The notes beneath the pieces are model-generated. The model did not search any database, was not told the origin of the DNA, and was given only the letters and a program-made list of their open reading frames with translations. A DNA stretch of 58,772 nucleotides, filler included, from Dugesia japonica (Eukaryota), in NCBI GenBank assembly GCA_001938525.1. It is 5 parts of 5 records of this genome, joined end to end, with 100 filler letters (N's around TTAATTAATTAA, not from the genome) between each part and the next. Parts side by side here need not be neighbours in the genome. Positions count along the whole stretch, not along the records: positions 12,929 to 31,657 come from MQRL01624647.1; 4 more parts are not named here. One strand, 5' to 3'. Each line of letters begins with the position of its first letter. Position 1 is the first letter of the stretch. Of the stretch, positions 13,340 to 45,350 are shown one piece after another. Made by a program: the position numbers and the translations under genes.

Positions 13340-15760
13340 TTAAATGTGAAATTCGTAAACACGATTTCCAGTTATCTGCGGATACGTGTCCTTTCATTTC
13401 ATAACGTCCGCATCTGGGATTATCGCATCTTCGATTCTCTTGCATTATTCTGTTTATTCAGTCTATTTTCAATTATAGTTAGATCATTTTTTAGCTGAAA
13501 CTTTCAGTTTTTAATTCAATATTTACTCTTAGTAGTTTTGCTGCTGATAGGCATGTTAAATGATTGAAGACACATCTAATTTCACTAATTATTATTCGCC
13601 TTGGATTTGTTATACAATTATTACACCATTTGTTATATTTCTCCCTGGACATGTTTAATTTTTTTACTACTCCCATACATTGTGTACATGCTGATCTTTA
13701 AATATCAGTTTTTTCTCTCCACACTTGTAATGATACTCGATTAAGTTTTCTATCTACATGTACGATTTTATCTTGTATCGTTCTCAAGCTTGATAACACA
13801 TTTTTAGCAATTGACTTTTTATCAAAAGTACTATTTCTGGTCTCATCTCTTTACAAATTTTGCATAGATTAGTTTCTTTGTTTGGTTCTTGAGACACCAA
13901 AATTCCTTCTCTTGGTTTTGCGGTCAACACCATTGCACAACGTTTTGATCTGATCGGATATCTCTGTTCCTCATTAAGCTTATCTACGATCTTTTTACTC
14001 GTATACACGTCATTATTCCTTGTATGTAAAGTTTCTCTTGATCCAGTTATCTGTAATGTGGTCATATCCAATACTGCATTTTTCATTATTAATGGCATCA
14101 AATCCGTGCCGATAACACATTTTTCGCTCATTTTTAATATGGTTATTTCATGCTCTACTTTTTTACTTTGAAATTCCACTTCACATCTCAGTTTTCCAAT
14201 TATATTTAATTATCCTCCATCTGCTGCTAATACTTCCGTATTTGATGTCGTAACATGAGGCTATTTCAATCTTGGTACCAAATTGCAATTTAATACTGAT
14301 ATCGTTGCGCCAGTATCTAATAATGCTGAAACTTCTCGTCCATCTACTATGATATTGATCAATCCTCTTGATCCTACTTCTGCTCTATTGTAGTATATAT
14401 ACTCTCTTTTGACTACTCTCTCTGATTTACTCATTATCGGACTATCTCTTTGTAGTTTCTCCATTTTCTCCGTTTTAATTTCAAATGGTTTTGATTTACT
14501 TTTTCCTATGCACAAATACTTTTTATGTCCACTTTTTTGACCTAAATGACATTTTGGTTCATTTTCACACGTTTCAGCTGTGTCCTTTTTCTCCACAATT
14601 AAGACAGTATTGTATCTTTTTGATGGTTATCTTTACCACAATGTATACATCTCGGATGCCTAAATTGAGTTTGACGTATTCTAACACCATTGAATTGATC
14701 CAAATCTATTTGTCCACTTGGGAATACTATTGGCATTATGTCTAATCCGATAATAAATTCGACCATTATATTATCCATTACTTTCATTGTATGTGTAAAT
14801 CGTCCTCGTGACGTATGTATTAAACATTTTATTTTGCCCACAGCTTTTACTGATTATTCAGTTATCAGTAATAGTTCACCTGATGATTTTTCGATTCTTG
14901 GTTTATCCGCTTTACATATTACTTGAATTTATTATTGAACTACTTGCTCCAGTATCAATCATACAATCAAACGTTTTACTATTTATTGTTATTCTTTGCA
15001 TCAATACCTTGAATCCTGTAGTTAGCACTGGCGCTAAACTACTCGTTTCACCTTTTCTGATATTTTCTTCGCTTTTTGATACAATACTAAAATTTGTTGA
15101 TCTTAATTGTGTCGTTCGATTATCTTGCTCGTCTTTTTTTAAGTAGTTGGTGGAAGTGCGGTTGTAATTCTTTATTTGGATAATACACTGTATTTAATCT
15201 TCACTGTCTCTGTCTTGGGTACCATCTTAATCTCCATGACGATTTCGTCCTTTGTGTTCTGCCCAGTCTTTCTCTTGTTCTGCCACTTCCTGTGATAATT
15301 CGTCTCCTTGATTTTTCTTGTCATAATAAGCTGCTTGCCACTGTGATACAGGCAGTAAACCCTTTGACTGATTCAAATCATTGATCAAATGCTAGTGCAG
15401 ATGCTCATTCAATCCTTTTTGGTAATTTTTCATACACTTCCTCATCGATTACTGCATTATATCCCTTTTAATAGCCATTGGACAATTGTCGTCCTTGTTG
15501 TAAATTTCTAATTTGTTCTCTAGTTTGTTGATTTTGAGTTATAATTGCTTCTCGAATCCTTGGTTGATTATTGTGTGGTCCATCGCTGTCATCAATACTG
15601 CTGTCTTGTCCTTTTCATGGTTTGAATGCATCAAATATTATCGTTTTTCTTTCTTTTCGTTTCCTCATATCCTTACATATTGCTTGAATTTGATTGATGA
15701 TTTGTTCATATGTTCCCCCAATTTGACTCATATATCTTAAAAATCTCCTCGTGTTGTGTA
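13340..15760 (-). pseudogene. Polyprotein C-terminal part: retropepsin 1 - two CCHC-like knuckles - retropepsin 2 - Cys-rich tail
   Basis: CMIDTGASSSI...IIGLD (~14990-14730), CIHCGKDNH, CHLGQKSGHKKYLC, ALLDTGATISV...AADGG..IIG...VIGTD (~14370-14100). No RT motifs seen before the reading frame ends. Confidence 0.85.
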
Positions 15761-15769
15761 AATTATTTT

Positions 15770-17390
15770 AATGACTATTTAATACTACCGACCTTGCCCA
15801 TGGTGGAAATATTCCCATTATCATTGACCAAGATATCTTTCTTTCTTTCTTATACAAATCAAAGCATGTCAATAATTGTGTCAATATCACTTTGATTATC
15901 TGTATTATAAATATTATTCCAAGTAATCCAGCTATTGCTTGTCCAAAAACTATAAATCAACCCCACATTTTGTTCATTACACTCATTGTTGCTGACTGAA
16001 AATAATCTGGTGGTAATAAAAACTCGTAGTTTGGTCTGCAATCTGCTGTAAATCCTCCTCATGTTATTTGCACAAGATTCGAAAGAATTTGCATCCTATT
16101 TACTGGAAATAACATATGTTCTCTTGCTTTGTCCAAATCGTCTTGTGGATAGATTCCACCTTCCGCTACATTTAACGGTGTAAATTTTGCTCCACCTTTG
16201 AATTGTAATCGTGAAAAGTTTCTGACTCCTGTTACTGGAAGTCTCTCCAGAAATGGTACCCATTTATTGTTATGTAGTTTAAAGTAAGGTTCAAATAAGT
16301 TTGAACAGTTTATCATGTTTAGGATGAATGATATCACTGTAGTGATTGGCTGCACAAATCTTCTTTCCGTTTGATATATGATTTACACTTCATTATAACA
16401 TTTATTATGTTCTTTTGGTGACAACGTTGCATCCACTTTTCTGCATTGATATAAACATTATCTCTCACACAATTCGTCCAAATTGTCCTTCTTCTATCGG
16501 TAGTAATGGCGATACATTATTTGGATTTGTAGTTACTGTTGCCAATTTTGTCTTTAATATTTTGTTATTTAATGTACAATAATTCCACACTAGATCATGA
16601 TATATTTGCTCTATTGAGGCTTGTGTTAGATGAAACAAATAATCTACTTTATTATTAATATAGAGATGTAACTGTGTATTTTTCGGTGTGATTCCTGCTT
16701 TAGCCTTTTCTAATCTCGTTTTCGATACCCATAAACCTTTGTAATTGGTTTCATATACTAACTCTCCACATTTCGATTTTGTTTTCTTTTGTATCAAAAG
16801 AATCATATCGTTTTTGTCAGTTGACATTAATACTACTGGTGTCTCGACCCAAAGTGTTTCGCTTGTTTTTGGCTTTATGGCTTCATCTACTTTACCTACT
16901 TTTGAAATCCTTTCCTTTTTGTCTACTTTGATAACCTTTTTCCCTTGATATTTGTCGAATGTTGTTTCCTTTAGAAATGTCATTGTAGATTCTTGGTGAT
17001 TAACATTATAGACTAAAGTTGATATCCCCGTATTATATGAAAATTCTGACGCTTTACACATAATATACATTTTCATCATTTGTATTCTTGTATAAAATAA
17101 TGCATCATATTCCTTTTATTCAACTCGATAACTTTCTACTGCTACCACATATTTAGTGACTACTTCTTTTACAGTATGAGTGCCTCGGGTACATGTTCCA
17201 TGTTCATCTGATATACTTCCTGCTGCGAAGATTCTGGTTTGAACGATCTGTCAACTTTTTGCATTAACAATTTTTCCTTCAGTTACTCGTATCTTCTCAA
17301 ATCTTTATTCGCATTGTTGTCCTGTTAGATAAATCTATCTTACTTCTGGTCCGGTTTCGATAATTGCCGTATAACTACTCGTTTCATAGT
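15770..17390 (-). pseudogene. Chuvirus-like (class III, gB-fold) envelope glycoprotein, N-terminally deleted
   Basis: AAGSISDEHGTC, KCGELVYETNYKGLWV, LYINNKVDYL...YHDLVWNYCTLN..GQFGRIV(G)EIMFIYQC..V..KCYNEV, CSNLFEPYF..KW, GGIY, and a TM segment KMWG*FIVFGQAIAGLLGIIFIIQIIKVI. The pattern matches my recollection of chuviral G and retroelement-borne G proteins. Confidence 0.8.
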
Positions 17391-20390
17391 AGTATTTAAT
17401 AATACTTGATGCATTTTCTTTTCTGTTGATGATTCTACTTGATTGCATCTCTCCATGATTTCCTGCAATACTGCTGCTAATTGTTCATCATGTGTTGGTT
17501 TTCGTCGTGTTACTCCTTTTCTCGTAATAGCTCCTCTTGGCCGCTCTCGCGCCTTTCGTTTCATTTTTGTTTCCGCATCGTTCATTATTTTCTAATTAAT
17601 CTCTTGATCTGTCATTTCCTCTTGATTATCCGTAGTTTTGATTAGCGTTCAATTTTTCGTTATTTGCTCTTCAAATTCTATTGCTGGGCATATATTTTCT
17701 CCTCCAAACTCATATTCTAATGGATTCGGTTTCTCTCATTTTGCTCGAATTCTATCAATGAAGGTCATTTTTTTATAAATAAAGGTGACTTTTGTCTTGT
17801 TAACTCTGGTATTCTTGGTGACACAAGTAATTTGTCTTCTATATCATAGCCTACTTATCTAGGATTAAATTTACTTTTTACTGTTCTCTCCTGTTTCACT
17901 GGCATTTGCCTCATTGTTGCTGGATCAATTCAAGTTATCTGTAACTCCTCTTCATCATCGTCACTTGGTTATCTGAATAATTGTTCGATAACATCATCCT
18001 CTTCTGTAGTAATTTCTCTTGACGATACATATTCTTTAGATTTTACTGATTTACTCTTCTTTGACTTTGATTACGTATTACTTATACCCTCTTCACTATC
18101 AATTACGATTGTTTTTGTATACTTTGTGATCTGCGCTTGAATCTGTTTCCAGGTGGTAACGTTTTACCTTTCAATAATTTCTTTTTCATTAATCTTTTTC
18201 CTACTTCTGGTTTAATATACAATTTAACTGTCAGCGCCTATCGAACTTTCAATGTTCCAATTATGTCATCGTTCAATAATTCTCTCTCATTCAATGTCAA
18301 AATATATGGCAGCTCAAATGGTATTTTTTCCTTTATATCTCCAATTGTTTCGTAAGCAAACCCAGCTATCATGGTTTCATAACCTTTCGGATCGGTTACT
18401 CGAAAATGATATTGTCTTTTAATGATTGTTTATTCACATATTTTAGTATATGTTTTATCAATTTTTTCCATTTTTTCATCATTTTCACTTCAAATTCTTT
18501 ACTCGATTTATCTGGACAGTGTGCTATAACTTTTACTACTTGATTCGGCGTTTGTAATGCCTGTAAATAAACTATTGCTCTCACTGCTTCATTAAAATGT
18601 TCTGCAAATATAAACCCTAGTTGATTCATTCGTCCCATTACCTCTTTCATCTCTCCACTTTTATTATAATGAAAGTTATTCAAAATTACTACTTCTATTT
18701 TTGCTAAATTCCACTTTAACGTTTACCAGGGTTCTATTTCGTTTCCTGCCGTCGCCGTTAACTCAATTTGATCATCATGTACTAACTTTAAATACTCGGA
18801 TTGGTCTATTTCTTCTTGATACACTTTTCTGAGTAATAATTATAAACTGAGTGATAATTTCTCAAATTCTATTGGTTGTTCATCGTCGTATTCTAATGTT
18901 AATTCTATAATCTCTACAGGTCTATAAACTGAAGTCAATTAAATGTATTCCTCGGTTAATCAATTTGTCTCGTTCAATTATCATATAATCACATAATATT
19001 CTATATCGCTCTAATCCATATTCTAACGGTAATTCACTAAGAATATCTTTTAATTTACCAATCATTGTCGTCTCAAATCTTTTAATCGCTTTTATTTGCA
19101 TTGTTGTTACTAAATCATCATATATCGTCGGATAATTAATTTTAACTCCATAATTTGCTCCAACTGATCCTTTTAATATTCCTTCTTTATACATTTTGAT
19201 TAATTGTGGACGAGCATTCCACTTTGTTCTCCTCATCATATGTATATAATGTTCATCCCACGCCAAATTCATCATTTTCTAATATGACTGCTTTGGAATT
19301 TTGTCCTTTCAAAATAAGGTTTCTTTAATGTAATGCTCTATCGTTGCCATATTTTTATAATCTTCCTTGTCTGAATCGTCGCCTGCTGCTACCGGTATCT
19401 CGCTTAATTCACTTATGCTAATATTGTTTAGACTCGCTGTTTGTTTTGGGATCTTTATACTCGAAACTCTCGGTACATAACCTGCCGTATCTTTAACAGG
19501 TTTAGATGGTATCACAGAATAATTCTCGAAATACTCTACTTTTTCACTTTCTAACAATTCACCTTCGTATTCTTGTATTTGGGGCTTCCATTGTCATTTT
19601 GTTTCAGCATCTACATAGCCAGGTTCAAGTGATTCTCGGAAATGATTTATCGTCTTCCAATATTGTCGTCTATTCAATTAGTCTTTCAATCCCTTTGTTA
19701 ATGCGATCACTTCCTCGATAGTATTTGTGGTGGTCGTTCCATATTTTATGGGTGGTCTTTTTACCTTTAGTAGGACTTCTATTGTCTAAATTTCCTCTTT
19801 GATTGTATTATTGGCTTCCTCTTCAGTCTCAGATATCCCTTTAGCTGTCATCATATTTACTTATGCGATTAATCTTGGATTGCTTTGTGGAACTTTGATT
19901 GCTAATCTTGTCATCATCTAATTGATTTCTCTTTCAATGTCGCCCTTTTTGGGCGACATATATAGCTGATCTGTTTGATGATAGTTTTGATGGTTCAAAA
20001 TTGAATTCTTTTACGGGTTGTCCATCTCGTGTAGCAGTTGTTAATGATTTTCGTACTTCAGTTGTATATCAGTAGAATTTTTGTTCGAAGAATTTCATTA
20101 TTTCCTTCATAGTTCCAAATAGTAAATAATGCCACACCGGTTGCTTTGTTTTATAAATTTCCGTTAAATATAAGACTTGTAATATCTGTTTACGTCCAGG
20201 TCGAATTCCATAATTCGTTATATGCACATCAGTATCATCTTGTTTGATTACTCTCGTCTTGAAACATAGCACATAACCATACAGCGGTATTTCCAGCACA
20301 TTTTTTTCTCTTAATAGCGCACAATAGTCCTCCCACCGTATCGTTTTGCAAAGTGATCTGACACGGCACTATTTCTCCTGTTGGTTCTCT
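17390..20390 (-). pseudogene. Long (~1000 codon) degenerate ORF of unknown function upstream of the glycoprotein
   Basis: Track ORFs 20069, 19309, 18922, 18396 and 17340 appear to be pieces of one co-oriented frame broken by stops and frameshifts. Composition is coding-like. Confidence 0.55.
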
Positions 20391-21904
20391 AAATTTGATA
20401 TTTTATTTCGATCGAAGCTTTTTCTTTATTTTAATACAAAGGTTAAATCTAACAATACAACATCCCCCTAACCATCCATAAAAATTGGATTTTAAAGCTC
20501 AGCAATCAATCTACTAGCATTATTATACGGATAAATAAGTCGACAGCTATTACTCAATTAAAATGTACAGAAATTACTTGATTTCATTCGAATTTTTTTC
20601 TTGATTGACTATTTATGATTCCAATATCCAACTTGGTTTTTCGTAACCATGCTATTTTACATAGTATTGTTCATTCTTTACGGCTCCCTTCGATTTGATG
20701 ATTTTTCTATTCTATATATCACTGGTAGTAAAATAACTTGTATTTCTTGTTAAAAGAATTTTCCTTGCACGAAAATTGTTATCTTCATAATCTTTAATAA
20801 TATACGAATTTTGTAAAGTAAGAAACATAAAGAGAAATAATTTTATCAGATATTTAAGGATCAAAATTAAGCCAAATAATTAAAAAATTAAAACACGTGT
20901 AGATTCAATTTGGAATAAAATCTAGATTTATAAATTAAGAAATTAAAACATGGAATTTCAAATTGTCCTATTCTTAGAGATTATTTTTTCCAGATGAAAT
21001 TAAATTGTTAAACGAGAAGTTAATGATTAGAAACGCAATAAGATCTAGTTGAATATTGAGCCGCATCTAATAAATTAATTGATTTAAATGAACTCATCAA
21101 TGAGGATACGAAAAGGAATGGTGTAAAAATTTAATTCATCTTATGTCACAATTGCAGAAACTTTCAAACTGGAACTACACTATGCAAAATGCTGACAGAT
21201 CCTAATTAAATATTATTGAAAATTTCCCTTTTGCTTCGAGCTAACAATAATCTTAACTAAAATTTAATTTAAAGTTCAAATAAAATCCCACAAAAGTTAT
21301 TTTTAAAACAACAAAAATAAATTAAGGTAATAATAACTCGTTAAAATAAAATTTGTCACAAAACGATTTAACAAATCGACAATCCTTTATTATTAATAAT
21401 TATTATAATCGATCATTAAATTACTATCAATTGATCTCATAATGCATAATACCGGCGTTTTCGATTTTAATTAATAACTTTAAGAACTGTCAGGCATTTA
21501 TAAGATTTCTTTATATTTCAAGTAAATTTGGTAAGGAAAATTGAAAATTCAACATTTTATTCATGTATTTGATGAAAGAGTATAAATTTGTTTATAACAA
21601 TTGAATTATTTTTATCTAGAACTGATGAGAATAAAATTTCTCAAAATGCAAACATTTTTTACAATTATTTTTCATTCGTGCATCAGAGCCAATATCCTTA
21701 TTATTATAAATATTGACATTTATTTATATTTTTCATTATATTATTCAAAAAAATAATTTTATTTTATNNNNNNNNNNNNNNNNNNNNNNNNNNNNNNNNN
21801 NNNNNNNNNNNNNNNNNNNNNNNNNNNNNNNNNNNNNNNNNNNNNNNNNNNNNNNNNNNNNNNNNNNNNNNNNNNNNNNNNNNNNNNNNNNNNNNNNNNN
21901 NNNN

Positions 21905-43902: not shown

Positions 43903-45350
43903 CACTGGTAAATATTCGTTTAAGCGCACTTAATATATTGTCTATATTTCATTTTATATGTGACTTATAAATATAACTTTGATTAAGAGGCATTATTGCT
44001 ATCAAAATAAGCACGAAAAACTCTTTCTTTATGTAATTAATTTAATAATAGCTTAAATAAATTGAAAAATTCAACAGAAACACACTAAAATTCGTATGTT
44101 TTCTTTGAGGTTTTACTAAATGAAAAATCCTTCTAGAAATTGAATTGGATAAATTTTTTATTGTCGGTTTGTGATTGTCCCTCCAGCACTCCTTGATGCA
44201 TTGTTGCAAATCGAAAGTAGTCTTAAATTGTCTCCAATTGCCATACACATTTGATGATAGTACGCCCAAAGGTTTTCTAGAAAATTTAAATTGAAACCGC
44301 ATGACTGAAAATCAATTAGAAAAATTCCTTTCGAGAAAAATCAAAACTTTGTCAGACAAAAAACAAGTATGGAAGCGTTATACCCCTGGTAATCGAAACT
44401 AATTCCAACTGTGTTATTCAAAGATGAAAGCAGAGCACTTTCTAACAATTCTGTAAATAAAATGGGAGATTTTCGTGTTTATACTGTGTATATTAGCAAC
44501 TTTCCAAAGAAACTAAAATCACTCCAAACCAAGACACTTAAATTTCAATTAGCCCTCATTTTTTGATTTGCCTTTAAATCCTTCCAATAACAAGAATAGC
44601 AATCAGAGGTTAAACTTTTTTTTTCAGAAAAGATTACTTATTGCCATTTATCTGTTCAATGCATGTAGCTTTGGGCAAAGTTCAACCACTTTTCAATATG
44701 AACTAAAGTAAGTCTTGGCTTTGACTTCATTTTCTTCTATTTTCTGTTAGGTGATGACAGTAATATATAACCAATATGCTTGCTAGTGACTGGAAAATTC
44801 AGTTTTCTTTTAATCTGAATACTATTCAAATGGTTCTTCGTAGCTTCGCACTTTATTTTATTCTTTTGCTTTGTCGTCAGCTTTTAAATCTCTCGTGTTT
44901 TATTTTTTTTTCATATGTATTAACTTTTTTAGAATATTTCGTATTGCACTTTCCGATCTTTCAATTTACTAAAGTTATTTTCCTGTTTGATAGATTATTC
45001 TCTTTGTAACATCGGAATTTCGGTAATTTCTTTGATAGTTAGGTAGGTACCCTATATCATGATTAAAAACTAGAAAAATTGACGATAATAAAATTTCATT
45101 TTTAAATAATACTAATGTACTTAATCTAAAGTACAAAATATTTAGATCATTTAAATTGATTTAAATAAATTATGCTTATTATATGTGGTTTTCTAAAACT
45201 GCTCTCAAAGAAATATTAGGCTATTTTATCATAAAATTACTTTGAATCAAATTATTTTTTTATTTTTAAGAAATCCTCCGAAAATATTTTTAAGGAGCAA
45301 CTTTGAATCTAAAATAATTATAAATTAAATATCAATTACAAAAAAAATGG
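43903..45350 (-). mobile_element. Tc3-like transposon, copy 2 (transposase remnant ~44090-45060)
   Basis: TA|CACTGGTAAATATTCGTTTAAGCGCAC left TIR. Colinear with copy 1. Right outer TIR is missing. Confidence 0.9.

Follow-up and report, generated by a model that had tools for sequence, protein, structure and literature searches.

As described in the portions of the literature drawn on here, the planarian Burro elements (Burro / GYPSM1) are giant gypsy-like LTR retrotransposons whose polyproteins include Gag, ubiquitin-like (Ubl), Bcl-2, ankyrin and dUTPase-like domains, with env in frame between Bcl-2 and the protease (PR) (PMC6431247). The Burro env matches mononegaviral fusion proteins and was called the first in-frame env between gag and pol; decayed Burro copies with stops and frameshifts have been reported in one planarian (PMC6431247). 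The order GAG-ENV-POL is also given for gB-type gypsy elements (errantiviruses) of Platyhelminthes, Nematoda and Bryozoa, and six Schmidtea elements of ~14.5-18 kb have such a gB-type env before pol (PMC13524379). A third system is Anakin, a BEL/Pao element with a chuvirus glycoprotein of the fusogen family PF24664 (PMC7642597), in which env follows the integrase (PMC12440569, PMC13524379). Troyka, as presented in part of PMC12440569, has no bearing on the element studied here.

We have analyzed a locus of Dugesia japonica (assembly GCA_001938525.1) that contains a fusogen of this same family. The window is the whole stretch of 58,772 nucleotides, five parts joined end to end, and the element lies in the part from MQRL01624647.1. 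In order along the minus strand there is a Monjiviricetes/chuvirus-type fusogen (PF24664), a transmembrane (TM) helix, retropepsin 1 (PR1), three partial CCHC knuckles, retropepsin 2 (PR2) and a Cys-rich tail. We consider it very probable that the locus holds a decayed internal part of a retroelement present in many copies, whose gB-like fusogen continues into two retropepsins. Its most likely identity is a Gag-Env-Pol gypsy element of the Burro type, with reverse transcriptase (RT), RNase H (RH) and integrase (IN) likely removed by internal deletion.

The locus resembles Burro in having env ahead of PR, in frame and in one polyprotein, and the relatives that we found share the Ubl, Bcl-2, ankyrin and dUTPase-like domains (PMC6431247). 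It differs in that the present copy is without gag, LTR, RT, RH or IN, and Ubl and Bcl-2 were not detected in it. Moreover, the CCHC knuckles of Burro follow gag, whereas those of the window are placed after env and between two proteases, and in the sections of the review considered a single PR is named (PMC6431247). There was no named Burro sequence among our matches. Most likely the element works in the manner of a Burro-type element; since RT through IN and Ubl/Bcl-2 were tested for and not found, we file it as a defective derivative, not an intact member. As for the gB-type errantiviruses, the Schmidtea env sequences resemble the window env when compared by eye, that of Smed_errantivirus_6 at ~35-40% over ~120 residues (PMC13524379 supplement 2). 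Those elements are, in contrast, intact and RT-bearing, and in the main text the word protease occurs once and several proteases are never mentioned (PMC13524379). The sequence-only reading had taken env to be normally the last gene and had suggested a new lineage on that ground. With env ahead of the protease, between gag and pol, already published (PMC6431247, PMC13524379), this suggestion falls, and we regard the element as probably one more form of a retrotransposon type already known.

Layout, decay and copies of the element

The features are collected in Table 1. Fusogen, two retropepsins, knuckles and Cys-rich tail, with no RT, had all been read from the sequence beforehand, and each was found at its place on the minus strand. 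From ~20400 to ~13700 the sequence reads as a coding-like frame interrupted by stops and frameshifts. Between env and the tail, the best frames (six segments) contain 17 stops in 1,167 codons (1.5%), compared with 8.4% in shuffled sequence. The present copy is dead. Nevertheless the low-stop frames are continuous in the window and the relatives have single ORFs, bearing out the proposed fusion of Env and PR. When the six frames of the window were searched with the RT-RH and IN profiles of the relatives, no match was obtained in or near the element; the sole RT-RH match in the window is to an unrelated scrap at 2462-2626. As no LTR, gag or RT is present, the placement of the element is drawn from env and PR.

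Table 1. Positions of the features of the element in the window
Feature	Position	Strand	Remarks
Upstream coding-like region, ~1,000 codons	17440..20400	-	Same decayed frame system; low-stop frames
Env, gB-like class III fusogen (PF24664)	15726..17400	-	N-terminal ~89 profile positions and signal segment missing; frameshift near 16453
Env transmembrane helix	15882..15938	-	Kyte-Doolittle 19-residue mean 2.6
Env tail and linker, ~300 codons	14993..15881	-	Coding-like, with stops and one frameshift
Retropepsin 1	14690..14992	-	DTG at 14956; frameshift near 14930 splits the domain; one stop
Three partial CCHC zinc knuckles	14510..14649	-	Read by eye from the frames; broken by frame changes
Retropepsin 2, pre-RT (canonical Pol) type	14060..14362	-	DTG at 14317; RVP E 7e-9; two stops in frame
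Post-protease linker to start of dUTPase-like domain, where homology ends	13982..14059	-	Profile match
RYPIRS motif	13946..13963	-	Far side of the inferred RT-RH-IN deletion; six codons after the profile break
Cys-rich tail	13756..13864	-	RING-like spacing by eye only; frameshift near 13790
AT-rich 3' stretch common to the family	13360..13755	-	Shared sequence ends at ~13360

Upstream of env, the coding-like frame reaches ~1,000 codons beyond the feature first noted, to ~20400. Pieces of this region gave no significant match to Pfam, nor any to the N-termini of the relatives (gag, ubiquitin-like and Bcl-2 profiles), and decay may hide Ubl and Bcl-2. The element is distant from its known relatives, because these ~1,000 codons match none of their gag, Ubl and Bcl-2 profiles. 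Ubiquitin-like readings made by eye at 18438-18200 and 20420-20240, and a Bcl-2-like one at 18920-18560, were unsupported by Pfam, PDB or the profiles of the relatives. An N-terminal Gag with CCHC likewise found no match upstream, where the copy is cut at ~20400 by another repeat. This is a very abundant short repeat (20400-20670; summed depth 57,000-79,000) that caps the 5' end, and a 36-bp piece of it recurs at 10824-10858. There is no LTR pair in the window; comparison of one flank with the other gives a single 36-bp match, and both ends of the element are missing.

Elsewhere in the window are features of other kinds. A decayed protein-primed family B DNA polymerase is found at 4300-7700 (+) (PF03175, E 1e-6 at 5821-6600), probably a Polinton/Maverick remnant, unrelated to the element in strand and sequence. 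Two copies of another repeat, 81-86% alike, lie at 9742-10563 and 44090-44911. A 149-codon ORF with a coiled-coil-like sequence at 12431-12880 (-), beside an assembly gap, has no significant Pfam match.

The stretch was found in seven listed sequencing runs from one organism and three studies; one of these runs may be the source of the window, and no RNA run is among those listed. Most matching contigs are 80-95% alike. In three contig runs, at 80% likeness, the summed depth over 13361-19363 was 776-6,614, 4,297-24,900 and 1,243-8,678, where a summed depth is not a copy number; just below 13361 it was 10-86. It is low at 19364-19624, and multi-copy over most of the upstream region. The element thus has many copies, probably hundreds, and the family they form extends over env, the two proteases, the knuckles and the tail. 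From one raw RNA run came 405 reads, of which 390 fitted only in part; most lay on the repeat at 20400-20670, and the reads carry no weight for the element.

These data bear on whether the arrangement is a chimera private to this locus, with the Gag-NC-PR of a second element nested behind an env-last element. Knuckles followed by a protease are the usual NC-PR order, and knuckles in this position are absent from the relatives. However, the multi-copy family covers the whole stretch evenly, with depth continuous over env, PR1, knuckles and PR2, and this argues against a private origin; the relatives carry Env-PR as one ORF, and there is no LTR or capsid between env, PR1, knuckles and PR2. We regard such a chimera as very improbable. 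Neither a conserved stop after env nor a nested element was found.

The fusogen and its relatives

The window env matches PF24664 (Monjiviricetes_fusion) in Pfam in two pieces, 17391-16465 (E 5e-13) and 16460-15850 (E 1e-33), and the env profile built from its relatives with E 4e-80 and E 3e-65. It is without positions 1-89 of the 667-position profile, signal segment included. Among 24 listed of 1,649 loose ends in other copies, some fall at 17373-17391, and together these observations are consistent with an N-terminal deletion of env in the present copy. After the TM helix the frame had been estimated to continue for ~250 codons to the protease; the stretch is indeed coding-like, with a length of ~300 codons, compared with 110-224 aa for the env-tail region in the 16 of 18 relatives where it is measurable.

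The relatives were collected by a HMMER scan with the C-terminal half of env, giving 381 matches at E <= 0.001, of which 150 were listed; full-length relatives were added by cluster look-up and two further searches. The identity of the window env to the long relatives is 28-36% among those 150. In 11 of the best 15 env matches the protein goes on to a retropepsin, and the remaining four stop in or just after env. No match was obtained when the env ORF was compared with longer proteins by a word-based search, and no relative of the element was found in the viral contigs searched.

The plan of the relatives, in one ORF, is Gag (capsid, CCHC)-Ubl-Bcl-2-signal-Env-TM-PR(1 to 5)-dUTPase-like-RT-RH-IN-(PR), with matches to Ubiquitin/Rad60-SLD, Bcl-2, ankyrin and capsid; we call one domain dUTPase-like after the Burro literature and because of where it lies, not on the strength of a Pfam dUTPase match. 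Two metagenome loci, L001 and L003, are single ORFs of 3,703 and 2,693 codons. The structure predicted for the env of one relative, P0010 (71-row alignment, mean pLDDT 80), matches herpesvirus gB with E 4e-14 and TM ~0.3-0.4, the protein folded being that of the relative and not the broken one of the window. The relatives' proteins, the env tree (below), this fold and the locus ORFs agree with the earlier proposal of a gB-like fusogen that shares its ORF with downstream retropepsins.

Two further observations concern the relatives themselves. P0003, P0153, P0158, P0160-P0162, P0164-P0166 and P0168 have two or three hydrophobic segments after the integrase, suggesting a second membrane protein at the end of the polyprotein. 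P0003, an env-PR-RT-IN polyprotein of 2,627 aa, carries the label of a Flavobacteriaceae MAG protein; eukaryotic DNA binned with a bacterium is the probable source.

In a quick env tree of 56 rows, from which rows of <170 residues and most fragments were excluded, the window falls in a group of 29 rows that holds 25 of the 26 env-PR proteins (SH-aLRT 95). The tree bears on the possible capture of a chuvirus G by a BEL/Pao element of the Anakin type, or on an endogenous chuvirus gene. The Pfam family is the same, and a DUF5641-env protein of BEL/Pao type (P0124) is among the env matches. Yet P0124 and the 25 stand-alone G proteins sampled of 66 fall outside the group of the window env, P0124 and stand-alone G score far lower among the 150 matches listed of 381, and Anakin lies elsewhere in the tree. 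An origin of either sort is extremely improbable: the window env groups with env-PR polyproteins, and not with BEL/Pao-type or stand-alone chuvirus-type G.

Number and function of the proteases

Both retropepsins had been read as complete. Both are present, but neither is intact, given the frameshift and stop of PR1 and the two stops of PR2. The first piece of PR1 matches RVP in Pfam (E 0.004), and both of its pieces match the protease profile of the relatives (E 1e-4 and 5e-4). PR2 matches the profile of the pre-RT protease with E 1.6e-20, and the protease tree and class scores also give the pre-RT type. CCHC-like knuckles had been seen too, although two in number where we read three partial ones by eye; in Pfam one piece only matches zf-CCHC (E 0.25). 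None of 22 relatives has CCHC between its proteases.

Multiple proteases are common in the relatives. Between env and RT there is one protease in 5/16, two in 10/16 and five in 1/16 RT-bearing relatives, a set that includes near-copies (e.g., P0005/P0162 and P0164/P0165), and 9/16 have one or two after IN. The total number ranges from 1 to 7, with linkers of 31-419 aa between successive proteases that may contain C2H2 fingers or ankyrin repeats. Of 47 protease domains from 19 proteins, 46 retain the catalytic D[TS]G. A single ORF carries four retropepsin domains in P0004, which ends without RT, and seven in P0155. In the protease tree, where the bootstrap had not settled, PR1 is on a long branch and support values are rough, 12 of 13 pre-RT proteases join both proteases of the window (90/71) and 31 accessory ones stand apart (93/89). 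Independent duplications are seen for the P0014 pair (99/97) and the P0004 pair (100/97).

Could PR1 and PR2 pair within one chain as a pepsin-like protease acting on the fusogen tail, as had been suggested? Two is the commonest count before RT (10/16), DTG is kept in both window proteases, the two are weakly sisters (80/88), and the linkers are long enough for pairing in cis. Against this, no partner is required for counts of one (5/16) and five (1/16) ahead of RT or for single proteases behind IN; the linkers of 31-419 residues carry unrelated cargo; and duplications have recurred independently. We think the single-chain protease improbable. Since linkers vary, counts can be odd and duplications recur, independent homodimeric modules would fit better than an obligate single-chain pair.

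In 17/18 relatives env is preceded by a hydrophobic segment, and in 16/18 a single TM helix separates env from PR1. From these two segments, read through the established topology of membrane proteins, we infer a possible scheme of processing. Gag would stay in the cytosol, and the internal signal segment would send the Env ectodomain into the ER lumen. The TM helix would return the chain to the cytosol, and Pol would be made tethered to the Env tail. Cytosolic proteases behind the Env tail could then release Pol and also process both Gag and Pol. Each would work as a conventional homodimer assembled in trans, probably aided by Env trimers that gather copies. The additional proteases probably stem from successive duplications, and small cargo domains (C2H2, ankyrin and here CCHC) lie in between.

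Probable loss of RT, RNase H and integrase

The match to the pre-RT profile takes in PR2 and the next 40 residues, covers profile positions 1-125 of 242 and ends at 13982. The motif RYPIRS that follows is the single occurrence of RYP[LI]RS in the six frames of the window. Among the relatives, [RK]Yx[LI]R is found behind the IN C-terminus in 10/11, and RYP[LI]RS exactly in five; the looser motif is also present near the start of env. At the RYPIRS site itself the IN C-terminal profile found nothing. In the relatives, ~1,100 residues separate the catalytic Asp of the pre-RT protease from the post-IN motif. As PR2 and its linker match the pre-RT type and are followed by the post-integrase RYPIRS, RT-RH-IN (~1,000 codons) has most likely been deleted, in frame, to judge by the profile break and one six-residue motif. 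Beyond the junction, a RING-like reading of 13864-13756 found no support from Pfam or PDB for either piece.

A stronger claim, compatible with the reading as a deleted Burro-type element, is that RT-RH-IN has been lost throughout the family, leaving a non-autonomous derivative that supplies Env and protease and spreads through an autonomous Burro-like partner. The junction is in frame (ORF 13784-14209), depth is alike on either side of it, and the 24 loose ends listed include the env deletion near 17373-17391 but none at 13960-13990. However, the listing shows 24 loose ends out of 1,649 and 24 pieces out of 11,258, with no listed piece spanning the junction, and an in-frame join is expected one time in three by chance. 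Internal deletions are, moreover, ordinary here, because a gypsy scrap at 2300-2800 (+) also joins CCHC knuckles directly to a piece of RNase H (E 0.009 and 0.001), which is another internal deletion. We hold a family-wide loss to be possible, though on balance doubtful.

Taken further, the family might be a high-copy satellite of Burro-type elements, devoid of RT and integrase but keeping fusogen and proteases. It would belong to a clade where catalytically intact retropepsins have multiplied to as many as seven in one polyprotein, serving as dedicated modules that free Pol from the Env tail and are switched on by Env trimerisation. We offer this fuller picture as a speculation that is rather unlikely as it stands. 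If true, a multi-copy RT-less family that keeps env would be an unusual non-autonomous element, and a literature phrase search found no paper on one.

In the literature covered by phrase searches there was no printed account of several proteases in such an element. Grohme in 2018 reportedly noted several protease domains in Burro. That work and Sacco 2022 may already describe several proteases, making that part of the finding known. The remaining value of the finding lies in the occurrence of 1-7 retropepsins with intact catalytic motifs in single-ORF enveloped retroelements, and these offer a testable case for the processing of a Gag-Env-Pol chain that would cross the membrane twice.
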